A DNA stretch of 64,000 bases, taken from positions 1 through 64,000 of the IMG/VR virus record IMGVR_UViG_3300028030_000009; one strand, written 5' to 3'. This document shows, one piece after another, positions 4,725 through 47,603 of the stretch (positions are counted from its first letter, which is position 1; the number at the start of each line of letters is the position of its first letter). The notes beneath the pieces were generated by a model. It searched no databases. It had not been told where the DNA came from and saw only the letters and a program-made list of their open reading frames with translations. A program made the translations under genes and the position numbers. Source of the stretch: a virus.

Positions 4725-5405
4725 CTACTTCTTCTTTAGTGCTTTCTTGACAATCTTGTCGCCACCGACTGCTGCAGCGGCGTTCGCAAGATAGCTGAGC
4801 TGAGACCCAATTAGTGCAGGTGCTCCTGACTTGAGGGCTTCTTTCCCGCCAACACGGTGAAGGGCTTTTGCAGCTTGGACATTTGCTCGTGTCTCTTCTG
4901 CTAGCTGTGGAAGAGCTAGTGCAGCCGCAAGGAAGCGTTGTTTCTTCGAGAGCTCCTTTCCTTTCAGTCCTTTACTGAGCGCCACGCTGGACATGATAGA
5001 ACTTCCGGTATTTGATACTCCATACAGTGCTGAGCCCTTCCAGTCGCCTCCAATTGGCCCTTTTGCATGTGCAATCTCATGGGCGTTCATAGCAGGGTTT
5101 CCTTTTGCTGTATGGACAACATTTTCTGGTCCAAGTGCACCCTTTGAGATTTTGTGCAGAATTTCACCAGGAACCATCCTTGGCGAAGTTTTTCTGAGAA
5201 GAAGGTTTTTGAATGTGCCCTCGGCACCTTCCTCGTATGAGATTTTTCTTCCTTTTGCTCCACTTACAGCCTTCTCAAGTTCTTCGAGTGGAATGTCTAG
5301 TCCCTTCTTTTTGAAGCTCTTTGAAGATGCATGCATTAGAGCTTTTGGAATGACCTCAAGTCCACCTGCTAACGCAACCATTTTTGCTATATCTTTTTTG
5401 TTCAT
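4725..5405 (-). CDS. basic protein with putative zinc metallopeptidase motif
   Basis: AHEIAH (HExxH) followed by hydrophobic helices and LPQLAEETRAN (third-ligand Glu-like). Confidence 0.6.
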   Translation of the reverse strand: MNKKDIAKMVALAGGLEVIPKALMHASSKSFKKKGLDIPLEELEKAVSGAKGRKISYEEGAEGTFKNLLLRKTSPRMVPGEILHKISKGALGPENVVHTAKGNPAMNAHEIAHAKGPIGGDWKGSALYGVSNTGSSIMSSVALSKGLKGKELSKKQRFLAAALALPQLAEETRANVQAAKALHRVGGKEALKSGAPALIGSQLSYLANAAAAVGGDKIVKKALKKK

Positions 5406-5408
5406 GAT

Positions 5409-6122
5409 TTAATCCTTTTCAAAATGTGATTTTTCTGGGAATAGCGACTTTACGTACTCAAAAATACCGCTTCCCTTGCCTTTTTCATCGAAGTTGATGA
5501 ACTTTTTACCTTTGGCCTCTTCTGGGTTGAATGGCCTTTCGTCATATCTTGCTGCACGAACATTCTTGCAAGAGCCGTTAGCCTCTCCTACTCCCATGTA
5601 GTTGTACAGGAAGTTCTCCTCGCCACCAAGTGGATTGTTCTGTATGTCAGCCATACGGTAAATCTCCATCCAAGCTTTTGAGTTCACCCAGTGAGGAATG
5701 TGTGACACGTAGTTATATGCGCTTAGGCCAAGTGATTCGAGAATCTCTTTTCCTTTTCGCAAGTCTTGCTGGAACTTCCTAGGTCCGAAATTCTTTATCT
5801 TTGACAGGTCTTCAAGATAGTAAATCTTTCTCAGCTCGTCGTCATACAGGTCTGTTATCGCAAACATATCATCATGCCAAACAACAAACTCATCAAACAT
5901 GAATGCACCAATATTGAATGCATTGATTATGTTTCTCGCTTTGATATCAGAGCATTGCTGTAGCGGCAAAAAGCTCACATTGGTCAACCACTCAGGCTTT
6001 TCTCCGACAACGAGTATCTCTTCTTTATTTACTACATGCTTTTCTATTGAGCGCAAAGCATATCTAAGCTCGTCTGTTCCCTGGTGCTTCGGTGGAATCT
6101 TGTACGGAATTACTATATTCAT
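5409..6122 (-). CDS. Stealth-like sugar-phosphotransferase
   Basis: IVIPY...DELRYALRSIEKH...PEWL...FVVWHDDMF...SHIPH resembles Stealth conserved regions (ELRYSLRS, NDD, HxP). Confidence 0.7.
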   Translation of the reverse strand: MNIVIPYKIPPKHQGTDELRYALRSIEKHVVNKEEILVVGEKPEWLTNVSFLPLQQCSDIKARNIINAFNIGAFMFDEFVVWHDDMFAITDLYDDELRKIYYLEDLSKIKNFGPRKFQQDLRKGKEILESLGLSAYNYVSHIPHWVNSKAWMEIYRMADIQNNPLGGEENFLYNYMGVGEANGSCKNVRAARYDERPFNPEEAKGKKFINFDEKGKGSGIFEYVKSLFPEKSHFEKD

Positions 6123-9976: not shown

Positions 9977-12403
9977 TCAGTCGATAACTGCTACGTCAAC
10001 AGCAAAGTCTGTCAGTCTATTAAGAAGAGTCTTTCCTTTCGCAAGGAACTGTGCAATCTTCTTGTCCCCGACTTGCTCCGAGAACTTGTTTCTTTGAATC
10101 TCAATCATAAGCAGTGTTCTCGCAAGTCCATTGACGCCGGTAAGAATGTCGTCAATATACTTCATCGCAATGCTCCTCGTATCGTCAGTGTCTACGAGAT
10201 ACGAGATAATTGCGGCTGTCAAGACATCCTTATCGGCAATCTGAGACAGCTGCGCAAGAACATTAGGGTCAACATTCAGATTGTACCCCTCGCCTGCAAG
10301 ATTGGCTGCCTCTTCTTGTTGGGCCACAATATCACCATTCTGGGCACCGATTCCAGTGTCCGTTCCATCATTCTGCGGCGAAGCTGCAGTAGCATCACCA
10401 GCAGGAACTCCCGCATCTTGCTCTGCTGGCGCTTGTTGTTGAGCAGCAGCCTGGCCCTGTGCCTGTTGTAGTTGCGCTATCTCCGCTTGTAGTTGCTGAA
10501 GGATTTGGGCAGGAGCCATTCCTTGTGCTTGCCCGGCTGCGAGTACATCTGCTCCGTTGATGCCCACTGAAGCAGCCAGTTGGTTAATCTGGTCAATGAT
10601 TGCTTGGTCATCTCCCTGAGCTCCTTGAGTAGTGGCTTCAGGCTGACCTCCTTCTCCCACCACTCCTTGTCCTCCTGCAGCCGATACCATCCCAGCTCGT
10701 CCGCTCTCAGTTTCTCCTTCTTCAGGTGCAGTCCCCGCATCTTGTCCTCCTTGTATCCGTAACATAGCAGCACGCAGGTCAGCAAGTGCAATCTTGTTCT
10801 CTGCAAGCTGCGCAAGTATTGCACGAAGTGTATCACTCAGAACTTTAAAATCCACTGGGAAGCCAGCTGAGTCTTCTGCTGTCTTGATGATTTTAGACAC
10901 ATCCTCTCCATTGAACCCGTCTTCTGCAAGCTTCTTAAGAATCTGTTCTCTTGTGAATCTTGCTCCATCGTACTCAAACATACCAGCTGAATACCTAACG
11001 TCAAATGAAGCAGTCTTGATGAAAGTCTCATCAAAACCGTCAAGAGTCATCAGCTCAGAGAATGGGTCAATATCATTTGTATGTTCTTTTTTGGCTGACG
11101 ACAATGCAAATGCGTTTCCTTTACCGAGGAATAGAACATGGTTTGGGTTGACGTAAATCTCTTTACCTCTTCTCGTATACCCATAATCCTCTCCAACAAT
11201 AATCTGACGATTGTCATCGTCGCCGTACACTTCTACGACAAGTTTATTCCCGACTTTCGTAACTGCAACAATCTCATAAAACTCAATGTCGTTTTTGGAT
11301 GCGGTAACAAACAGGTATCTTGCCTTTTTCGGGTCAACCTCGCCACCAAAGATTGCAGCGATGTGTGCACGTGGGTCATCGTTAACAGCAGCGGCTTCAA
11401 GTCCAACATATGGAGGTCTTTCTGGATTCGGGTTATACCACGCTTCTTTTCTGCCTGCGTGTTGAGCGATGTCATGCACAATCTTGCTTCTTCCTTTGTA
11501 GAACATCACATTCTGGGTAGAGCCACCTTTTGTAGCAACGACAACAGGTCTAAGGTCAAGGTCACGAGTAAGCGCGTTGTAAATTCCGGGCTCCGTGAGA
11601 ATCTCAAGGTTTGACTTGGCCTTCATTAGCATTTCGCCAAGAAGAGGAACCTGCATAACGACACGCTTTGTCTTTATTTTTTCCGCATCCTTAGCTGCGT
11701 GCTTGTAGAACCCATTGGTTGCAATTTGCTTTGCCGCATCAGTCCTGACACTCTCAGGAAGCTCTTTCAGCTCGGCAATCTTCGTATACACTTTGCCGTC
11801 ATGCTTCTCTCTTGTCGCTGTCGCAATCTTATGCATGGTGACAGTCTGCTTTGCCTTCTTGAACAACTCATCTGGATAGTTGCTGTGCAGCACCTCTCCC
11901 ATCTCACTGTCATTTGCAAGCTTGACAAACTGCTCAGCGAAAGCAGGGTTTTCAACAAGAGCGCTGATTACAGTATAGTTGTCCTCTGCCACCTTTGGCG
12001 AAAGAGTTTGTGGCGTTGCAAACAGTCTACCGATGATTCCCTGGTCAACCGTGATTCTGTCTGCCTCTGCCTTATCGACTACTTCTCCAAAGCTTGCAAC
12101 CTTCGATGCATTGATTAGCTTCTTGTACATCTTTTTTGTCATACCGTATAGACGCTCTGTATCTGTGTCTCCAATATAGGAGATTGCGTCTACCGCACCA
12201 TTTCTGTAGATGATTGGACAGAACAGAACTCTTCCATTGATGACGAAGTAGATGGCGCCGACAGCATATGACAGGTCATCTTCTACATGGTCAACGTCAA
12301 CCTTTACGATTTTAGGCAGCAGTTCGTGATAGTTGCTTGCAATTTGCTTTGTTGCCTCATCAACAATAAGGTCTGTGAGCTTTTTTAGTACTTGTGATTT
12401 CAT
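9977..12403 (-). CDS. large head-associated protein with many K-x-A motifs and a Gln/Ala-rich linker
   Basis: 808 aa; SKVAS, PKVAE, VKLAN, HKIAT, YKHAA, IKTAS, IKTAE. Confidence 0.7.
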   Translation of the reverse strand: MKSQVLKKLTDLIVDEATKQIASNYHELLPKIVKVDVDHVEDDLSYAVGAIYFVINGRVLFCPIIYRNGAVDAISYIGDTDTERLYGMTKKMYKKLINASKVASFGEVVDKAEADRITVDQGIIGRLFATPQTLSPKVAEDNYTVISALVENPAFAEQFVKLANDSEMGEVLHSNYPDELFKKAKQTVTMHKIATATREKHDGKVYTKIAELKELPESVRTDAAKQIATNGFYKHAAKDAEKIKTKRVVMQVPLLGEMLMKAKSNLEILTEPGIYNALTRDLDLRPVVVATKGGSTQNVMFYKGRSKIVHDIAQHAGRKEAWYNPNPERPPYVGLEAAAVNDDPRAHIAAIFGGEVDPKKARYLFVTASKNDIEFYEIVAVTKVGNKLVVEVYGDDDNRQIIVGEDYGYTRRGKEIYVNPNHVLFLGKGNAFALSSAKKEHTNDIDPFSELMTLDGFDETFIKTASFDVRYSAGMFEYDGARFTREQILKKLAEDGFNGEDVSKIIKTAEDSAGFPVDFKVLSDTLRAILAQLAENKIALADLRAAMLRIQGGQDAGTAPEEGETESGRAGMVSAAGGQGVVGEGGQPEATTQGAQGDDQAIIDQINQLAASVGINGADVLAAGQAQGMAPAQILQQLQAEIAQLQQAQGQAAAQQQAPAEQDAGVPAGDATAASPQNDGTDTGIGAQNGDIVAQQEEAANLAGEGYNLNVDPNVLAQLSQIADKDVLTAAIISYLVDTDDTRSIAMKYIDDILTGVNGLARTLLMIEIQRNKFSEQVGDKKIAQFLAKGKTLLNRLTDFAVDVAVID

Positions 12404-13777: not shown

Positions 13778-14059
13778 TTACGGAAGATTGAAGTGTGCTG
13801 GAGACATGTATTCTGTTCCCGGCTCTTCAAATAGGACAAGTTCGCCGCCAGGGAGGACAATTCCTGTTATATCCAAGTGTGTGACCCCGGTTGTCTCTAT
13901 CCTATTAAGTTCACTTATTGCAAGCCTTATGAACTCTGGTGAGTTCTGGTACATTCTGTCAACATGGATTGGTGGTGTCACAGCATATGGAGCATTTTTA
14001 TCGTTGACTATTGTCAGGAAGATGAGCGGAGTTGGATATTGTGATGTTGTACCAGTCAT
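13778..14059 (-). CDS. hypothetical protein
   Basis: start re-assigned to MTGTTSQ, with ATGA overlap with the upstream small ORF. Confidence 0.6.
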   Translation of the reverse strand: MTGTTSQYPTPLIFLTIVNDKNAPYAVTPPIHVDRMYQNSPEFIRLAISELNRIETTGVTHLDITGIVLPGGELVLFEEPGTEYMSPAHFNLP

Positions 14060-14160
14060 AGTCCAGCACCACACGACATGCAAACAACTGTAGTGGCAAA
14101 TGCCATCACAGCCACACCTATGAGTATGTACGCTACTAGCATTGGGTCATCAGTAAACAA
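14056..14160 (-). CDS. small membrane peptide (34 aa)
   Basis: GGAGG RBS, TTG start, hydrophobic LVAYILIGVAVMAFATTVV; TATAAT upstream. Confidence 0.45.
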   Translation of the reverse strand: MFTDDPMLVAYILIGVAVMAFATTVVCMSCGAGL

Positions 14161-14271
14161 GATTGCACCTCCGGCAAAGCGTTTTTGGTATTATACAACA
14201 CAAAGGTGAAGGCTTATTTTTTTACACTCTTTTGGATATAATTCGAATGAATATGCACACAAGGCGCAAAG

Positions 14272-14523
14272 ATGTCAAAAAAAACCATCAAAAAGAAAAA
14301 AAGCATTAAAAAGTGTGGGCTCGTTGTCACTGATTTAGATAGAGACATTGCCTCTGTTTCACCAGATAGCGCCCAGGTTATTGACAAGGTCAGCGCTACT
14401 TGGAACGACATTCAGAAGAAGAAAATGAGCAGGACACAAAGGTATTTAACCTATGTCAAGAGACCGAAGAGGCCAACATCCAGGATTGGACTACCAAAGA
14501 CACCAAGAGTAAAAAAGATTTAA
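14272..14523 (+). CDS. small basic protein
   Basis: 83 aa; TATAAT at 14237-14242 and AAGG RBS. Confidence 0.6.
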   Translation: MSKKTIKKKKSIKKCGLVVTDLDRDIASVSPDSAQVIDKVSATWNDIQKKKMSRTQRYLTYVKRPKRPTSRIGLPKTPRVKKI

Positions 14524-14526
14524 CAC

Positions 14527-14694
14527 ATGACACTATCAGAAAGCGCATACATCCCGATACTGATTTTTTTTGTGCTGATTTCGGCAGGGGTATCAATAGT
14601 AACTGCAGTAATCGGTGTCACAATATACGTAGCCTACTACCTAAAAAAAAGAGTCGCAGCCAGAAGCGACAGCAGCGACGCAGCTGGACAATAA
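14527..14694 (+). CDS. small single-pass membrane protein (55 aa; not in ORF track)
   Basis: MTLSESAYIPILIFFVLISAGVSIVTAVIGVTIYVAYYLKKR...; TM helix followed by KKR. Confidence 0.55.
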   Translation: MTLSESAYIPILIFFVLISAGVSIVTAVIGVTIYVAYYLKKRVAARSDSSDAAGQ

Positions 14695-14998
14695 CTACCA
14701 CTCCACTACACCATCAATATAGACAACAAAACATCGTGAATCCATGATTGCTTGACAATCAAATGGATATCGGTGTACAATGACATTGCTACTTTTTATG
14801 TCAGGGCCTCACTGCCCTGTCTCTTCTTTTTTACTCCAAAAGAAAGAACTCGCTCCAACATAATTGCAGTCGCAATAATAACTTGTTGGGGCTTTCTGTC
14901 TCACCCCAATCAAACTTGCTTTTTAATGCTGTACATCTTTATGCTAATCAAAGCAAAATACTGTACAATACGGTATTCTTAGCAAAAAGGAGTGGCTT

Positions 14999-15880
14999 AT
15001 GAGGATACCTGTGTTTTCAACTGGGGATATAACAATCGGCTCAATTGACAAAGAGTGGCTGAAGAATAACAACCCACTCATAAAATCATCTACAGGGGAA
15101 AGTGGAGCTCGAATTCCAGCTGTCGCTGTTGCGTATAAGCCTGATATCTTATATGATGACGGGGAAATAATTGTTCCAGGTGATTCGTTCTTCTTGATGT
15201 ACAGGTTTGACTTGTCGCATTTTAGGGGCGAGAAGGTGCCAATCGAAATTATCCCATATGAGCGTGATTCTGATATGGCATGGGTTCTTGTCGAGTATAC
15301 AAGATGCTTCAAGCATAGGGACAAGGTGCTCTCTGAAATTTTTGACGAAATCGTAGGCTCAAGACCGTTGTTTCTTAGTGAGTACAGGCGTGTTCGCATA
15401 GAAGAGCTTGTAAACACTATGTGGTCAGACACAGAGTCACCATTGTTTAGGAAAATCAGCCTCACTCCCGGAGACGACGGAGAAATAACATGGTCTGGAG
15501 CACACAACTCACTAAGAAAACATCTGTTCTTTGATGCGGCATCCCCGTTCGTGGAAAGATTCACATTTGAGCAGCAGGCCAAAATCCTTATCTCATCTCT
15601 TACTGTCGCCAAAAGCATTAGTGGCTTCAAGGATGTACTCTGTGCACAGCTTGGGTTTGATGCAGTCATGATTGCAATTGAAGCTGCTCTGCAAAAGGTT
15701 CGTGATGTTATGTACTTTGACGAAATATACAACTACACCAAAGAGAGTATTCTTGTTCTTGGGGAAATCGACTGGAAAGAGAAGGACAGGTATAGAGGAG
15801 TATCTGGAAGGTCTACTCTATTTGAAGACATTCGGGAACATAGCGATAGATTTCACGACAAGCACTCTTCACATTCTTGA
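14999..15880 (+). CDS. hypothetical protein
   Basis: 293 aa, AAGGAG RBS. Confidence 0.75.
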   Translation: MRIPVFSTGDITIGSIDKEWLKNNNPLIKSSTGESGARIPAVAVAYKPDILYDDGEIIVPGDSFFLMYRFDLSHFRGEKVPIEIIPYERDSDMAWVLVEYTRCFKHRDKVLSEIFDEIVGSRPLFLSEYRRVRIEELVNTMWSDTESPLFRKISLTPGDDGEITWSGAHNSLRKHLFFDAASPFVERFTFEQQAKILISSLTVAKSISGFKDVLCAQLGFDAVMIAIEAALQKVRDVMYFDEIYNYTKESILVLGEIDWKEKDRYRGVSGRSTLFEDIREHSDRFHDKHSSHS

Positions 15881-15888
15881 AATAATAG

Positions 15889-15897
15889 TGCTATAAT
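15889..15897 (+). promoter_or_regulatory. extended -10 promoter (TGCTATAAT) facing the non-coding region
   Basis: exact TGnTATAAT with no credible ORF downstream for ~890 bp. Confidence 0.6.
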
Positions 15898-15903
15898 ACT
15901 CCC

Positions 15904-16100
15904 AAGGATGGTGGACGCCCACTAGTGTTCCTATCCCAGCCACTACTCCAATGGCGGTTGAGCTGAAACCTTGACTTATAGCCTATCGGCTAGGTTAAGG
16001 TTCGGTTCAGCCGCTACGGAAAAGCGCCGCCCACCGCTTAGAAAGTGGCTATCGTAGGGGGTTTGCGTGTTGTACGACCACACCCAAAAACCCCCAAAAC
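15904..16100 (+). ncRNA. candidate structured non-coding RNA
   Basis: ~28 bp hairpin 15952-16016 with six G:U pairs, closing stem AGCCACT/AGTGGCT, side hairpin AAGCG/CGCTT, 3' GGGGGTTT/AAACCCCC stem; boundaries approximate. Confidence 0.55.
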
Positions 16101-16242
16101 CCCAAAACAAAACAACAACACTTCTTCTCAATACTACTATTCCTTTCCTATCTATACTCACTATATGATTCTTTGGCTGTTAGTACTCCTTTAATGGGGT
16201 TTGGTTTGCTTTGTATGTATATGGGTTGGGGTGGCTCCATAT

Positions 16243-16455
16243 GTCCAGAACACTTAGGCCAGAGCACCTATGTTATACGGAACACCAAAAATCGTACTAC
16301 AACCCGTAGTAAGCGTTTTTTTAGCAAAAATGAGTTTTCTACACCTTGGTGTCAAAAATATGTGTGGGCTTTTGTTGGTTATGCTCTGCTATGTTATACC
16401 TCTATACCTATTTTGGTCCGGAGCACCTGTCTTTTTCCCTATGATAGGGCACATT
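16243..16455 (+). repeat. dispersed ~13 bp repeat GTCCRGARCACYT
   Basis: GTCCAGAACACTT 16243, GGCCAGAGCACCT 16257, GTCCGGAGCACCT 16416; weaker copies at 16275 and 16443. Confidence 0.55.
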
Positions 16456-16770
16456 GGGCTTTTCTACCAATCAATTCTCGCTTAGTGTTTGCAAGAAACA
16501 ATACAGTACTACGGGTTGTAGAAAGTACTTGCGTATTGTTTTTTCTACGGGTTGTAGAACGCTTCTCTTGACAACCTTTTCTACGGGTTGTAGAAAATAC
16601 ATACAATCCTATCTGCTCTCTTGCAGCAAAGGTGATATCTCAACTTTTTACTACGGGTTGTAGAAAACAAAAATCATACTATTGTCTACGGGGTGTAGTA
16701 ATGGTATAATTGCAATACTGACTACGGGGTGTAGAAAGCTAGCTTTTAAATACTTTACTACGGGTCGTAG
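16297..16770 (+). repeat. CTAC-N5-GTAG repeat array (7 direct copies, 35-36 bp period) plus one inverted copy
   Basis: direct copies start at 16509, 16545, 16581, 16651, 16686, 16722, 16758; inverted CTACAACCCGTAG at 16297. Confidence 0.9.
16682..16710 (+). promoter_or_regulatory. sigma70-type promoter TTGTCT-17-TATAAT (extended -10) overlapped by a repeat
   Basis: -35 at 16682-16687, TGGTATAAT at 16702-16710; repeat 16686-16698 lies mostly between them. Confidence 0.65.
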
Positions 16771-16790
16771 AAAAAAATAAGGATTGAAAA

Positions 16791-17027
16791 ATGGAAGCTC
16801 TTGTTGATGTAGATGGTAGAGAGATAAACGTTGGAGACATTGTAGAGGAAGATGGGCATCTCTTTGAGATAGTGTGGCACAATGGAGAGTACATGGCTAA
16901 GTACTTCTATCCTGATGAGAGTAGAATCGGGAGCCTTGCTGATGTAACTTCAGAAGGTATCTGGCATAATTATGGATTGAAGGTTGTATCTTCCTGCAAC
17001 GAAAACATCGATAGGATTCTCAAATGA
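16791..17027 (+). CDS. YopX-like protein
   Basis: LVDVDGREINVGDIV...EIVW resembles the YopX DxxGxEIxxGDIV motif. Confidence 0.65.
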   Translation: MEALVDVDGREINVGDIVEEDGHLFEIVWHNGEYMAKYFYPDESRIGSLADVTSEGIWHNYGLKVVSSCNENIDRILK

Positions 17028-17668
17028 CATTCTCAGAGTTGAAGAGGAAAGCATATAATGAGGGCATGACTCTTGTTCCGTTGTATATACTTGTTGAAGA
17101 TTGGGGCGGGAGGCTATTCGGGAAAGAGCGGCTGTACAGAAAGAAGGATTTGATTGAAGGACCAATCCGTGTTCTGTCTTCCGATGAGATACGGTACAAC
17201 TTTGCTTTCCCGAACCCATTGATTGAGCCAGCTACAGTTAAGTACTCACCTACTATTCTCAAAAGACAGATTCTTACATCACGCTGCATCATCTTTCCAG
17301 GAAGAAAGACGTTCAATGGTGTTGCTTGGTATGCGCAGACTGACAGGAAGATTACAGTTCCACCATTCCACTCTTTTGTTGTTGACCCGAAAGGAGTTGA
17401 GCGCTCTGTGAGACTAATGCTTTGGTTTAACAGGAGAGATGTCATTGATGCAATCAATACAGAAATGCCGAAGAATGGAATGACAATATCTTTTATGAGA
17501 GAGCTGCCTGTGCCAGTAAATGAAACACCGAACGATGTGGTCGAAGAGTTTGTGGATTTAAACAACAAGAGGATGCAGCTTCTCTCTGGTGTTGAGATGA
17601 CATCGTCTAACATAAGAAAGCTTATTGAAAGATACGACAGGGCTGGGGAGGGGAATGCCCCAGCCTGA
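17024..17668 (+). CDS. hypothetical protein
   Basis: 214 aa, ATGA overlap with the upstream gene. Confidence 0.75.
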   Translation: MTFSELKRKAYNEGMTLVPLYILVEDWGGRLFGKERLYRKKDLIEGPIRVLSSDEIRYNFAFPNPLIEPATVKYSPTILKRQILTSRCIIFPGRKTFNGVAWYAQTDRKITVPPFHSFVVDPKGVERSVRLMLWFNRRDVIDAINTEMPKNGMTISFMRELPVPVNETPNDVVEEFVDLNNKRMQLLSGVEMTSSNIRKLIERYDRAGEGNAPA

Positions 17669-17824
17669 AAGGAGGTATGAGTGGCAAAAAAATCGTGCGA
17701 CTCCGTACGGACTGCCCGGCACTTACACGCCCTTTTTAGGACGGCGGTTTTTTACCGCAAACGAATAGTAACAAAAAAATTTACATAGGTCAACATAGGA
17801 ACACTATAGAACAAAGAGTTGATG

Positions 17825-17833
17825 TGGTATAAT
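17825..17833 (+). promoter_or_regulatory. extended -10 promoter TGGTATAAT
   Basis: upstream of the 17865 start. Confidence 0.55.
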
Positions 17834-17864
17834 TTTCCAAATAAAAGTTCCACGGAGGATAACG

Positions 17865-18056
17865 ATGAGTCTCATCCTTGTAGTATGGGCAATCATTACA
17901 GTAGCGTTACTGGTTGCAATAAAATCAAGAGACGAAGAGCTTGGAGTGTATGGGGTTATCGCGGTTTGTTTTTGGCCAATGGCGCTAATAGCATATATCA
18001 TTCATATTGCAACACATACACTGTTTTTTAAGCAGCAGCACACACCGGCACTATAG
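17865..18056 (+). CDS. small two-TM membrane protein
   Basis: GGAGG RBS; two hydrophobic stretches. Confidence 0.6.
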   Translation: MSLILVVWAIITVALLVAIKSRDEELGVYGVIAVCFWPMALIAYIIHIATHTLFFKQQHTPAL

Positions 18057-18158
18057 AAGCACTCGAAGCATTATCCCCAGAAAATGGGAATCTTGTTATG
18101 TTTTTAACTTTTTTAGTGTAGAATACTGTCTATAAAATACAACATTAGGACGGGGCAG

Positions 18159-18773
18159 TTGTTTAGCATACAAAATGCGTATTCATCAGCGATATCAGCT
18201 CTCTATGGGTTAAAGAGAAAAGACCCGTGCCCTTATACTTTCAGACTGTTTGGCCCTGCGCACAACAAAAGAGTTGTATTTGGCCCAGCTCAGTGGGGAA
18301 TATCTGTTTCTGAAATAGAAAATAGAATGTGGCTAAAGTCGCATGGGTTTGATATGAACGATATAGACAGGATTGAGAAAATATTGATGCTTGGGTCAAT
18401 AAGGAGCGATGACAAATTATTTTTGTCTTCTATGAACAGGCGACTAAAAGAAAAACAGCTTCCAATAGACCTTGAGACAAAAAAATGGTGTGGACTTGAA
18501 CTTAAAAGAATCTCCTCAATACAAGGGCTTGATTTCGCAAAAAGCTCGAACCTCATTGGCGCTCTTACTCTATGGCACAACATAAAATACCGTATCGAAG
18601 AAGGCTCACAGTTTCACGATAGATGGGCTTATGTTTCTGGCAAAAAAACAGACGGTGGCGCCAGGTTTGTTGCAGAGTTTTTGCATTGGAAACTGCAGAG
18701 AGAAGTGGCCGACGAGGACATGCAAGATATTGTCAAACGCTATGGTATAATCTTAGACAGAGTAAAATTCTAA
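18159..18773 (+). CDS. hypothetical protein
   Basis: 204 aa ORF. Confidence 0.65.
   Translation: MFSIQNAYSSAISALYGLKRKDPCPYTFRLFGPAHNKRVVFGPAQWGISVSEIENRMWLKSHGFDMNDIDRIEKILMLGSIRSDDKLFLSSMNRRLKEKQLPIDLETKKWCGLELKRISSIQGLDFAKSSNLIGALTLWHNIKYRIEEGSQFHDRWAYVSGKKTDGGARFVAEFLHWKLQREVADEDMQDIVKRYGIILDRVKF
18743..18751 (+). promoter_or_regulatory. extended -10 promoter TGGTATAAT
   Basis: within the 3' end of the previous gene, upstream of 18788. Confidence 0.5.
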
Positions 18774-18787
18774 GCAGTAGGTAAACC

Positions 18788-19678
18788 ATGGCAACACAAC
18801 CAGATGAACTATTATCAAAAGGACCTAGGGTCGTCCCCCATGATGCATCAGTAAGAGTTGCGACACAAGACAGTTCAGACCCAAAAACACTATATGGATT
18901 TAACGCCCTTGGGAACATGGCGTTTGGCGCAGGGTCTCTAGTTTCTCCAGTATCAAAAAAGCTTGTTGCTGGCAGAAGGCATCCGTCGCTGTATTCCGCT
19001 GGACTGAGAACACGGAACCTTGTTCTTGGAGGACTTGCTGGAGCAGCACTATCTACTCCGTTCGACTACCTTCAGTCAAAGGCTGAAGAAAGATATAGAA
19101 ATGATAAGGATTTCAACGCAAAGCACTTTGGGGCAATCCTCCTCCCAGCACTTGCAAGCGGTACGCTTGGAACCGGCGTGATGATGAATACTATCGACAC
19201 CATGAAGCTTGGCAATCGTGTTGGGACAAAGAAGATGGTTGCTGGAATCCTTTCTCCGAAAAGAAACATTAAGAGAACACGTCGTGAAATGGGAAGCATC
19301 GCAAGAGCATTTAGGGGTAAAAATATAGGTGGAGCCCTGCTGGGCGCATTGATGTTGGGCTCAAGCCTTATAGGTCCAGCACAGTACGCATATAGGACGC
19401 TCAGAGGGAAAAAAGACGAAGAGCTTAAAAAAGAGGCGTCTGCTCGAAACACAAATGACATTCTTCGCTCGCTTAGGGCAATTAAAAACAAGCTTGGAAA
19501 ATCAGCGGCAGGCATTGACAAGAAAAAGTTTGACACTGGACTTGGGTACTTTATTCTTGCCAGTGGAGGACTTGCAGCAGGTGAAAGCTTGCGAAGAAAA
19601 CTAAGAAAGCAAGAGACGGTTTATCCAGACCAAGCTGTGTCGAAAAGCATGTTTGAGGGCGTAAGAGTATATACATAA
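18788..19678 (+). CDS. basic Gly/Ala-rich protein, putative internal/ejection protein
   Basis: 296 aa; Gly-rich hydrophobic helices, KKEA|S motif. Confidence 0.7.
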   Translation: MATQPDELLSKGPRVVPHDASVRVATQDSSDPKTLYGFNALGNMAFGAGSLVSPVSKKLVAGRRHPSLYSAGLRTRNLVLGGLAGAALSTPFDYLQSKAEERYRNDKDFNAKHFGAILLPALASGTLGTGVMMNTIDTMKLGNRVGTKKMVAGILSPKRNIKRTRREMGSIARAFRGKNIGGALLGALMLGSSLIGPAQYAYRTLRGKKDEELKKEASARNTNDILRSLRAIKNKLGKSAAGIDKKKFDTGLGYFILASGGLAAGESLRRKLRKQETVYPDQAVSKSMFEGVRVYT

Positions 19679-19687
19679 AGGACGAAT

Positions 19688-20665
19688 ATGGCTGAAAATA
19701 TAACTTTTGAGGATTTGAATACTTTTGCAGACGCACTAAAATATGCAGACACATTGCTTCGGACTGCTGAGAGTGGGGTAGAGCTTTCATATGATTTCAT
19801 CAGGTCTTATGACTACTATGGAACAGTTAGAATGGCTATCCCAAATGGCACTCCTCTTGAGGCTCCTACAGTCGTATTGAAGAATTACGATGTGTCAAAA
19901 TTTTATCAATATACTCCACAGAGCATGTCAAACTTCTTCTATCCGAAGTCTTCTGGAGCAATCCCAGGTGTTGTTGTTGAGGATGCTTCAGCAGAAACTG
20001 ATATGTCACTTCTAACAAAGCAGTACATCGAATCAAACTCAATCCTTGTTGACGGACAGTTCTACGCAGACTACTGTTCGTATTCAAGCAATGTTGCTGT
20101 TGATGAAAACAGCGACGATGCAACAGCTGCAAAACTATCCATCCTTGATACAATGTGCTACAAAGTTAATGAGACGATTCCTGTTGATTCTGACGACTGG
20201 AACGTTTCAATTAAAACATCAATGGCTATGATTTCAAAAGCCAAGGGTTCAAATGTTTTTGTGTTTAGGCTCGCATCAATCCCAAGCATAAGGGCCAGAA
20301 ATATTAATGTGGCGTCATCTACGTACACAATTGACTGGCTCACAAACGGCTACATCCAGACAGATGGAATTATTGCGCAGGACGCAGAGATAACAGAAGA
20401 AGCGTATGAGAGCTCAAACGTGGCAACAATAAAAGCACTATATGACAGCAGTCTGAAGACAGCTGGCTCAACACTTGAGCTTCACCTTGAAGCCCCAATA
20501 GGCATTGCTGCTGCAAAACAAAAAGTTAATGATTTTATGGAGATTTCTGGAGCAAACTGTGTATACGAAGGAGAGGACGCATTCCTCACAAGAGAAGAAG
20601 GGGTTGAGCTCGCTAAGTATTTGATTAGAAAGTTAGCTGGAATCAAGCTCGGAATCCAGGTGTAA
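19688..20665 (+). CDS. hypothetical acidic protein, possibly structural
   Basis: 325 aa, AAGGA RBS. Confidence 0.75.
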   Translation: MAENITFEDLNTFADALKYADTLLRTAESGVELSYDFIRSYDYYGTVRMAIPNGTPLEAPTVVLKNYDVSKFYQYTPQSMSNFFYPKSSGAIPGVVVEDASAETDMSLLTKQYIESNSILVDGQFYADYCSYSSNVAVDENSDDATAAKLSILDTMCYKVNETIPVDSDDWNVSIKTSMAMISKAKGSNVFVFRLASIPSIRARNINVASSTYTIDWLTNGYIQTDGIIAQDAEITEEAYESSNVATIKALYDSSLKTAGSTLELHLEAPIGIAAAKQKVNDFMEISGANCVYEGEDAFLTREEGVELAKYLIRKLAGIKLGIQV

Positions 20666-45979: not shown

Positions 45980-46227
45980 CTTTCTTTCTCTCGCAAGCGC
46001 TCTCCATGCGTAGCAATTTTAACCACATCAATCATTTCTCGCTCAATAAGCTCTTTTGTTGCCTCCATGGTGTCAGCAAGCTCATCGTATCCTACGTCTT
46101 CTAATGGCTCCCAGACGATTGTTTTTTCAGGCTCATTCATGAAGTCATCGTATGTTCCATCGCTCAGGTAGCAGCCTGCTGCAAGTCTTTTTGCTTTTTC
46201 TTTGATTATGTATTTCAAGTCGTTCAT
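45976..46227 (-). CDS. hypothetical protein
   Basis: 83 aa; IVWEPLE. Confidence 0.6.
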   Translation of the reverse strand: MNDLKYIIKEKAKRLAAGCYLSDGTYDDFMNEPEKTIVWEPLEDVGYDELADTMEATKELIEREMIDVVKIATHGERLREKER

Positions 46228-47603
46228 TGCTTACCTCCTTCATATTTTACATTCGCAGAAACAAGTGCCTTGGCAACCTGAGGAACAACACTGTTTCCAC
46301 ACATCCGAACTTGTGCGCTTCTCGTGAGCTTTCTCCCGCGAGGGTTTCCAGTCTTTGAATCATACACATTATCTATCGCATACGAATCAGGGAAACCTTG
46401 CGCCCTAAATAGTTCCCTAGGTGTGAACATCCTCATGCACACATCTGTAATAACGTAATCGTCACCATTTACATTTACCACTCCGAACCGCTCTTTTGTT
46501 GTAACTGTGTGCAATGGAGAATCAACTGGATGGGACGTTCCGTTCCCATAATATTTCATCAGGAATGTTCTAACCTCTCCATGATGAGAGCCGCTGCTTG
46601 TAATTGTGTGCATTGGCTCATCCATCTTTGAGCCATAGTTGTTGTTTCTCATTTTCACAACATGGCTTAGTACAAGTTGTTGCTGGCTTCCAGTCCTGGT
46701 TACTGTTGACATTGGCGTGTCAACCGCCCTGCCGACATTTCCAAGGTTGTGCTGCGCAACAAACAATGCAGCCTTGTCAACATGCATAGAATTGCATTCA
46801 ACCGGTGCTACAAATGGCTTATCATTATCAATTACAAATTTTCTTATCCCTGTTGCTATTCTGTGCATTGTCTTCTCTGCGAGCGGTCGCTTGACACCGT
46901 ACTGCTTTCCCTCTTCCTTGCTCAGAAAAATTGAGTATGCTGGTGTGTCCCAATCAATGCAGTCAGCAGCAGTTTTCCATGGAAGTCTATCTGGATATTT
47001 TCTTGGGTCTCCATGCGTCGGCTCTGGCCAAACGATTGGCTTTCCATCACATCTGGCCACCATGAATAATCGCTTTCTTGTAGTTGGCGCGCCATAGTCC
47101 GACGCTACGAGCTCTTTCCATTCGACCTTGTACCCTATATGCTCAAGCTCTTTTACAAAAATATTGAACGTCATGCCAGCCTTGTCTTTGATTGGCATTC
47201 CGTTATCGTCAAGAGGCCCCCATGTCTGGAACTCTTCGACGTTTTCAAGGATAATCACATCTGGCCTAACATCGTTAGCCCACCTTACTGCAACCCATGC
47301 AAGGCTTCTTATATTGCAGTCTAGAGGCTTCCCGCCTTTTGCTTTTGAGAAATGCTTACAATCCGGCGAGAGCCATAGCAATGCTACACCATGTCTAACA
47401 GCACCGCATACCTTCTTTGGGTCAACGTCAAATACATCCTCTTTGTAGTGAATCGTGTTCCTGTGGTTAGCAGCATGCATAGCAATTGCTTCATCGTCAT
47501 GGTTGACCGCAATATCTGGAGACACTCCAAGAGCCCACTCTATCCCAAGGCTTGCGCCACCTCCTCCAGCAAATAGGTCAACTATTAATTTACCGTTAAA
47601 CAC
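46224..47603 (-). CDS. C5-cytosine DNA methyltransferase (orphan)
   Basis: DLFAGGGG (I), SPDCKHFS (IV), ENVEEF (VI), TRKRLF (VIII), RAQGFP/GNSV (IX-X). Confidence 0.95.
   Translation of the reverse strand: MFNGKLIVDLFAGGGGASLGIEWALGVSPDIAVNHDDEAIAMHAANHRNTIHYKEDVFDVDPKKVCGAVRHGVALLWLSPDCKHFSKAKGGKPLDCNIRSLAWVAVRWANDVRPDVIILENVEEFQTWGPLDDNGMPIKDKAGMTFNIFVKELEHIGYKVEWKELVASDYGAPTTRKRLFMVARCDGKPIVWPEPTHGDPRKYPDRLPWKTAADCIDWDTPAYSIFLSKEEGKQYGVKRPLAEKTMHRIATGIRKFVIDNDKPFVAPVECNSMHVDKAALFVAQHNLGNVGRAVDTPMSTVTRTGSQQQLVLSHVVKMRNNNYGSKMDEPMHTITSSGSHHGEVRTFLMKYYGNGTSHPVDSPLHTVTTKERFGVVNVNGDDYVITDVCMRMFTPRELFRAQGFPDSYAIDNVYDSKTGNPRGRKLTRSAQVRMCGNSVVPQVAKALVSANVKYEGGKQ

Follow-up and report, generated by a model that had tools for sequence, protein, structure and literature searches.

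A promoter-embedded palindrome array ahead of a half-HsdS-like phage gene as a candidate autoregulatory operator set

Organization of the locus

The window analyzed here is a 64-kb stretch (64,000 nucleotides) of a phage contig from IMG/VR (77,081 bp; CheckV estimate 41% complete). It is mostly transcribed on the − strand, including genes for DnaB, primase, ribonucleotide reductase, and a C5 methylase, and carries a + strand block from ~14000 to 20665. The only long non-coding stretch of this block (15881–16790) holds an array of palindromic repeats, which directly precedes a 78-aa orphan gene (16791–17027) followed by the gene of a 214-aa protein (17024–17668). The features of the locus, in order, are:

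15868–15897, + strand: distal promoter TTCACA-18-TATAAT (TGCTATAAT), a consensus match
16295–16311, − strand: site 0, the inverted copy (TACTACGGGTTGTAGTA on the − strand), 212 bp upstream of site 1
16507–16523, + strand: site 1, TACTACGGGTTGTAGAA
16543–16559, + strand: site 2, TTCTACGGGTTGTAGAA, with perfect arms of 6 nt
16579–16595, + strand: site 3, TTCTACGGGTTGTAGAA; with its flanks TTTTCTAC-GGGTT-GTAGAAAA, arms of 8 nt
16613–16626: degenerate variant palindrome CTGC-N6-GCAG (read from the sequence), in the double-length gap at about the position expected of a missing unit
16649–16665, + strand: site 4, TACTACGGGTTGTAGAA
16682–16710, + strand: proximal sigma-70-like promoter TTGTCT-17-TATAAT with TG before the −10 box (10/12 matches), predicted start at ~16717
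16684–16700, + strand: site 5, GTCTACGGGGTGTAGTA, which overlaps the proximal promoter at its −35 box and spacer
16720–16736, + strand: site 6, GACTACGGGGTGTAGAA, at ~+3 to +19 of the proximal promoter
16756–16772, + strand: site 7, TACTACGGGTCGTAGAA, in the 5′ UTR just ahead of the ribosome-binding site AAGGA (16779–16783)
16791–17027, + strand: 78-aa orphan, the first gene after the array; acidic (pI 4.4), modelled as all-beta
17024–17668, + strand: 214-aa half-HsdS-like protein with one TRD and a 40-residue C-terminal helix, the proposed binder of the sites
17865–20665, + strand: remainder of the operon, a 63-aa membrane protein and proteins of 204, 296, and 325 aa

Both promoters are consensus matches from a promoter scan. 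The distal promoter and ~40 nt downstream of it are conserved in two related phages (contigs L010 and L011, described below), and transcripts that start there would have to cross the array. The 204-, 296-, and 325-aa proteins of the operon are likewise conserved in relatives. Searches of the ten neighboring proteins against PHROGs and Pfam gave no useful match, and neither an HTH-like nor another recognizable DNA-binding protein was found in the block with these databases. ESM Atlas was uninformative for the 204-aa and 325-aa proteins, and no tRNAs were found in the region. No relatives of the 78-aa orphan were found; its model is all-beta at low confidence, and as the protein is also acidic, a role in DNA binding is not obvious. 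Two small proteins encoded at the head of the + strand block (14272–14694) are conserved in all relatives; one is very basic (83 aa, pI 10.7) and the other is a single-pass membrane protein (55 aa).

The non-coding stretch contains further features upstream of the array. A conserved promoter and leader or non-coding RNA occurs upstream of the operators in three phages (window: 15868–16250; L010: ~5300–5710, − strand; L011: ~5270–5640, − strand), with the motif GCTAYAATAC followed by GGAnGG...GCCCAC...GCCCAC; positions 15890–15929 of the window match the start of this leader. This segment may serve the operon as a long structured 5′ leader or give rise to a small RNA of its own; Rfam returned no family match for it. 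A C/A-rich run (CCCAAAAACCCCCAAAACCCCAAAACAAAACAACAACAC) lies at 16078–16120, on the strand of the would-be leader transcript. Between leader and array (16254–16278, 16383–16399, and 16413–16433) there are short repeats, including GGnCnGAGCACCTrT twice and CTATGTTATAC twice, and CAGAGCA (16260) is complementary to TGCTCTG (16383).

Structure of the palindrome array

Eight copies of CTACNNNNNGTAG are present in the window (starting at 16297, 16509, 16545, 16581, 16651, 16686, 16722, and 16758), compared to 0.50 ± 0.73 copies in dinucleotide shuffles, where eight were reached in 0/100 cases. All eight CTAC-N5-GTAG copies fall within 474 bp, seven in direct and one in inverted orientation, and the scan of the whole record that the earlier note had proposed (pattern search, 77,081 bp) found no copy outside the array. 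An exact 17-mer scan of IMG/VR returned a single other contig, a chance match inside a coding region. Start-to-start intervals of the direct copies are 36, 36, 70, 35, 36, and 36 bp, with the variant palindrome CTGC-N6-GCAG at 16613 in the double-length gap, and the inverted copy (16297–16312) is a perfect 16-nt complement of 16648–16663. In all of these positions and intervals our analysis agrees with the earlier note. The same holds for the promoter with a repeat inside it, which the scan recovered at 16682–16710 with site 5 in the −35/spacer region, and for the last repeat abutting the ribosome-binding site (6 nt separate site 7 from the AAGGA that serves the ATG at 16791). The repeat unit had been taken to be 13 bp; its CTAC-N5-GTAG core stands, whereas its length has to be revised, as the conserved site spans ~21 bp.

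Based on column counts of the eight copies (consensus tTTaCTACGGGTTGTAGAAA), the full site reads TTTnCTAC-GGGTT-GTAGAAA. The best copies are TTTTCTAC-GGGTT-GTAGAAAA, i.e., sites of 21 bp with half-sites TTCTAC/GTAGAA around a 5-bp center and inverted arms of up to 8 nt (TTTTCTAC/GTAGAAAA). The center, GGG[T/G][T/C], is kept in a single orientation in 8/8 copies. The 19-nt spacers are unrelated to each other, as had been noted before, with a pairwise identity of 29.6% compared to 30.1% expected from composition. A strict 36-bp pitch combined with randomized spacers implies selection on spacing. Since 36 bp corresponds to ~3.4 helical turns, dimers bound to adjacent sites would lie on nearly opposite faces of the DNA, and the pitch may represent the closest packing of such elongated dimers. 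The repeats are thus a real, non-random, promoter-embedded array at one spot in the record. At 16334–16354, 40 bp from the inverted site 0, there is also a half-site-only copy on the − strand (...GGTGTAGAAAAC), with a perfect GTAGAAAA arm and no matching left arm.

The array has the look of repeats and spacers, a unit of 36 nt, and, upstream, an inverted copy that resembles an anti-repeat, features that would also fit transcription into a hairpin-repeat RNA, either a CRISPR/TIGR-like guide array or a processed small-RNA array. The region folds more stably than shuffled sequence does (+ strand, z −2.9; − strand, z −5.8), a result that any run of palindromes gives, but single hairpins are only 4–6 bp long (−2.1 to −4.9 kcal/mol). 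A guide or hairpin array is not supported by the position of the −35 box, the −10 box, and the ribosome-binding site, all of which lie in the presumed spacers. Rfam gave no match for the window region (E ≤ 1) or for L021, no cas-, tas-, or Nop-like gene is located nearby (Pfam, PHROGs), the 17-mer recurs in one IMG/VR contig only (within coding sequence), and the relatives carry two sites instead of arrays. We regard an RNA array as extremely improbable. The earlier note had offered an operator array or a hairpin RNA as alternatives; the latter is not upheld, whereas the former is favored by the overlap with promoter and 5′ UTR, the palindromes of the relatives, and the half-HsdS protein encoded downstream, a candidate for the binding protein that the note had not named.

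The 214-aa protein has the fold of a half specificity subunit

The AF2 model of the 214-aa protein (17-sequence alignment; pLDDT 88.4, pTM 0.81) has a head of mixed alpha/beta structure and, after it, a helix of 40 residues (170–209). The best Foldseek matches were the Esub1 structures 8vsr/8vsq (E 8e-7), followed by the S subunits of EcoKI, PacII, BsaXI, T. tengcongensis, M. genitalium, and M. jannaschii (E 1e-4 to 2.5e-3). With VIA-align 2, Esub1 (8VSQ) aligned at Z 14.0 over 185/196 residues (model range 4–210), ahead of PacII S (13.1), BsaXI S (11.2), CamA (11.1), EcoKI S (10.3), EcoR124I S (9.9), and M. jannaschii S (9.8). The structural matches are type I and type IIB specificity subunits together with the TRDs of gamma-class methylases. 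In the model, the TRD fold and the coiled-coil helix of HsdS are both present; instead of the two TRDs and two conserved regions of a full HsdS, the protein aligns to one half, and its layout (~200 aa, one TRD-like head, and a C-terminal helix) is that of Esub1. Judged by its predicted fold, the 214-aa protein corresponds to one half of the specificity subunit of a type I restriction enzyme.

Sequence comparisons point in the same direction over a larger distance. A search of 1.84 billion representatives with the family profile yielded ~15 members of roughly 210 aa, and a weak match to P0032 (E 2.6e-4; 1.8e9 proteins). Pfam assigns exactly the stretch matched in P0032 to Methylase_S, which makes it a genuine HsdS protein. 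A direct alignment of the family with P0032 by hhalign gave 95% probability (E 3.7e-8, 163 columns). Pfam returned no match between the 214-aa protein and PF01420 (Methylase_S), none was found in six-frame searches of the four phage records (E ≤ 1), and a PDB sequence search with the family profile produced no meaningful match. The protein of the window is a family outlier (16–23% identity) and is basic (pI 9.4).

HsdM-type (PF02384) and Eco57I-type (PF07669) methylases were found neither in the phage's own record nor in the three relatives, one of which is 100% complete, and the only methylase in the window is the C5 enzyme (46224–47603). As no phage partner is encoded, any partner would be the host's, and the half-S protein could act with host HsdM, and perhaps HsdR, such that the sites are methylation targets, serving as an epigenetic promoter switch or redirecting a type I system of the host. 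Half-S dimers do work with HsdM on symmetric N5–N8 targets (PMC3874165, PMC6158711), and the single adenine per strand in the half-site CTAC/GTAG means that the sequence permits methylation. However, the targets occur at one promoter per genome (two sites in a complete 187-kb genome), which is unlike the distribution expected of a modification specificity, an array of type I sites would be hazardous in the phage's own DNA, and the closest structure, Esub1, did not convincingly bind HsdM (PMC11754733). We consider a host-methylase partnership distinctly unlikely.

Related phages carry different palindromes at the same position

A blastn comparison of the array region to GenBank phages gave no match, and single-protein searches with the 214-, 808-, and 325-aa proteins found no related loci. 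The 808-aa protein (9977–12403) has relatives at 40–48% identity, and their alignment retrieved contigs L010, L011, L013, L019, and L020, of which L010 (187,664 bp, with terminal repeats) is complete. Based on tblastn synteny, L010, L011, and L013 carry an opposite-strand block with homologs of the 214-, 204-, 296-, and 325-aa proteins, and none of the three has the 293-aa or the 78-aa gene of the window. Alignment-based scans for further family members returned the L010 contig alone, and no 214-aa family member was found in the other related records (L019 and L020 left out); the comparison of proteins and sites thus comprises four phages.

Each relative has its own bipartite palindrome, in two or three copies, just upstream of the gene for the 214-aa homolog. 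In L010, two copies of ATACC-N6-GGTAT, 40 bp apart, bracket a TATGATATAAT −10 box. In L011, two copies of TGTACG-N9-CGTACA lie 42 bp apart with a third partial inverted copy, and in L013 two copies of TGTTCGT-N7-ACGGACA are separated by 38 bp. Including flanks, the palindromes of the four phages each span 20–21 bp. Those of L010 and L013 were found only at this spot by pattern search (records of 187 kb and 165 kb), and the much looser L011 pattern GTAC-N11-GTAC had two other matches in a 62-kb record, about the control level. Overlap of the sites with the promoter is clear in the window and L010 and ambiguous in L011 and L013. The four phages therefore have four different palindromes at the same position (n = 4); the relatives have a site pair at the promoter, and the phage of the window carries an expanded set of eight.

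The orphan genes at 14999–15880 (293 aa) and 16791–17027 (78 aa) exist only in the window's phage and flank a non-coding region larger than its counterparts in L010, L011, and L013; array expansion and the two orphan-gene insertions may be linked.

The proteins diverged along with the sites. Pairwise identity of the 214-aa homologs among the four phages is only 20–33%, and the half-S gene is the most divergent of the block (L010 vs. L011: 33%, compared to 48–83% for its neighbors). The non-coding leader adjoining the half-S gene is 61% identical over 345 nt between L010 and L011, whereas their operators are completely different. In these four phages, the divergence pattern is what would be expected of a specificity determinant co-evolving with its site. 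In the four proteins, the length of the C-terminal helix showed no link to the half-site gap, a relation that has been described as not simple (PMC6158711).

The palindromes could instead be operators of another phage or host protein, with the half-HsdS-like gene merely regulated cargo. The sites lie over promoter elements, S subunits normally need M for DNA binding (PMC3874165), and the asymmetric conserved center hints at a reader unlike a symmetric half-S dimer. On the other hand, Pfam and PHROGs searches found no HTH-like or other recognizable DNA-binding protein in the block, the sites change completely between relatives while the only fast-diverging neighbor is the half-S gene, and lineage-specific sites in phages that are otherwise syntenic would be left unexplained by a host factor. 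We consider a different binder unlikely.

The relatives also bear on two possible roles of the array outside transcriptional control, as an iteron-type replication origin or as a parC/parS-like partition centromere. Seven direct repeats with regular 36-bp phasing, arranged as 3 + 4 around a gap, in the vicinity of an AT-rich non-coding region would fit such an element, and parC of plasmid R1 has a similar repeat-promoter-repeat layout. Nevertheless, the neighboring genes include no Rep, Par, or initiator gene (Pfam/PHROGs), and DnaB, primase, and ribonucleotide reductase are encoded 37–45 kb away. Only two sites, bracketing the −10 box, are present in relatives, and in the complete L010 genome they are not at the genome ends. 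An origin or centromere is very unlikely in our estimation, and the comparative data speak most strongly against this alternative and the RNA array. Two other candidates were rejected: a pac/cos site, because the sites of the complete relative L010 are located at ~62 kb and not in the terminal repeats, and phage-specific promoters, because the palindromes differ completely between relatives.

Repeats of other kinds occur elsewhere in related contigs. The contig end (1–500) of L019, a more distant relative, carries ~6 copies of (GTCAAC)nGCTATGTGTAAAA alternating with ~5 copies of GGGGTAAAAAA(GAGAATTGT) at distances of 60–90 bp. A gene for a 156-aa protein and that of the 808-aa homolog lie downstream of this cluster, which may represent phage-specific promoters or an origin; GCTATGT is also present in the window, at 16268 and 16389. 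A perfect 24-nt tandem repeat of ~8 copies is found in L020 (11807–12017) and L015 (1–130), within the C-terminal Gln/Pro-rich part of the 808-aa homolog, and both contigs break within it.

A probable autoregulatory operator array

Taken together, the array probably comprises the operators of an autoregulating dimer of the half-HsdS-like 214-aa protein. What the data show are unique palindromes placed over promoter elements, the fold of the encoded protein, and the fact that sites and proteins co-vary between relatives. From these we infer that the 214-aa protein dimerizes, binds DNA without a methylase, and acts as a repressor. By analogy with Esub1 and engineered half-HsdS proteins, two copies would pair through their helices, such that two identical recognition domains face two half-sites and the homodimer reads each ~21-bp bipartite palindrome. 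Repeated palindromes do lie over the promoter of the candidate regulator's own operon (sites 5–7), covering the −35/spacer region, the start region, and the 5′ UTR. Their occupancy would shut off the operon that encodes the binder, resulting in negative autoregulation. Sites 1–4 and the inverted site 212 bp upstream would raise local occupancy through cooperativity or looping, and could also block read-through from the conserved distal promoter.

Some features fit this model less well. The main caveat is that canonical S subunits do not bind DNA without M. Furthermore, the GGGTT center is conserved and oriented, which is not explained by a symmetric dimer that reads half-sites, and in the window an orphan gene separates the array from the 214-aa gene.

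A broader evolutionary scenario, to which we give about even weight, is that a lineage of large, uncultured phages turned the type I specificity fold into a free-standing, methylase-independent transcription factor. Its target would have changed fast between relatives (half-sites and gaps of N5, N6, N7, and N9), and in the window's phage the operator would have multiplied into a close-packed array of eight sites at a 36-bp pitch.

Autoregulated operator sets are ordinary, whereas regulators that use the target-recognition fold of HsdS do not form an established class; most likely, the locus combines a known regulatory logic with a DNA-binding fold that has no established role as a transcription factor. 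Among free-standing half-S dimers only Esub1 has been characterized, and neither its DNA target nor its function is known (PMC11754733). If the model is correct, Esub1-like half-S proteins would for the first time have concrete DNA targets, namely the phage sites. The TRD-plus-coiled-coil module would then be a DNA reader that is re-targeted in nature and whose half-site gap is tunable, and the proposed evolutionary link between transcription-factor-like dimers and the specificity subunits of restriction-modification (R-M) systems (PMC6158711) would gain support. With four natural protein/site pairs side by side, the targets of half-S proteins and their need for a methylase are directly testable. 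Also unusual is the eight-site array with its 36-bp pitch, which may reflect the footprint of packed half-S dimers.

Comparison with known systems

In terms of regulatory logic, the closest parallels are the C proteins and C-boxes of R-M systems and the OR/OL operators of lambda, where palindromic operators upstream of the regulator's own gene overlap its promoter. The autoregulatory arrangement is shared, and the two adjacent sites of the relatives are similar to those of these systems. C proteins and lambda repressors are helix-turn-helix proteins, whereas the phage candidate has the HsdS TRD fold, and two or three sites are usual in those systems, compared to eight at a strict 36-bp pitch in the window. 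In the ParR-parC system of plasmid R1, two blocks of direct repeats flank a promoter and are bound cooperatively by a small autoregulating dimer. The parC iterons are 11-bp direct repeats, whereas the sites in the window are 21-bp palindromes. Unlike in ParR-parC, no ParM/ParA-type partner was found near the array, and the relatives have only two sites.

In terms of protein architecture, the phage protein resembles the half-HsdS proteins of R-M systems (EcoDXXI deltaN/deltaC, EcoR124I derivatives, and the CC398-1 half-S), in which a single TRD dimerizes through its helices (PMC3874165, PMC6158711). Truncated or engineered half-HsdS proteins dimerize and, together with HsdM, read GAAY-N5-RTTC and TCA-N8-TGA (PMC3874165), and a half-HsdS with HsdM reads the symmetric bipartite target ACC-N5-GGT (PMC6158711). 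The geometry of GAAY-N5-RTTC and ACC-N5-GGT is the same as that of CTAC-N5-GTAG. These half-HsdS proteins act only with HsdM (and HsdR), as methylases or nucleases with sites spread over genomes, and neither S nor M binds DNA alone (PMC3874165). In contrast, no HsdM- or Eco57I-type methylase gene was found in the phage record, and the sites are confined to the promoter of the gene itself. For the staphylococcal hsdS_short, no regulatory role has been assigned (PMC10030836).

The nearest structural counterpart is Esub1 (SpyM3_0890) of Streptococcus pyogenes (PDB 8VSQ/8VSR), a half S subunit that forms a homodimer via its C-terminal helix and thereby presents two identical DNA-binding heads (PMC11754733). 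Binding of HsdM was not convincing, and its authors proposed that Esub1 is a transcription factor; its recognition sequence and function were stated as still to be found, and no DNA-binding assay was reported (PMC11754733). An insertion helix in the DNA-binding cleft of Esub1 is a Prx-binding motif (PMC11754733). The likeness to the phage protein extends from size and domain layout (Z 14.0, rmsd 3.9 Å) to genomic context, as both are encoded away from R-M genes, but Esub1 is bacterial and sequence identity between the two is only 11–12%. Whereas Esub1 has no known DNA target or operator, the phage gene has candidate operators alongside it.
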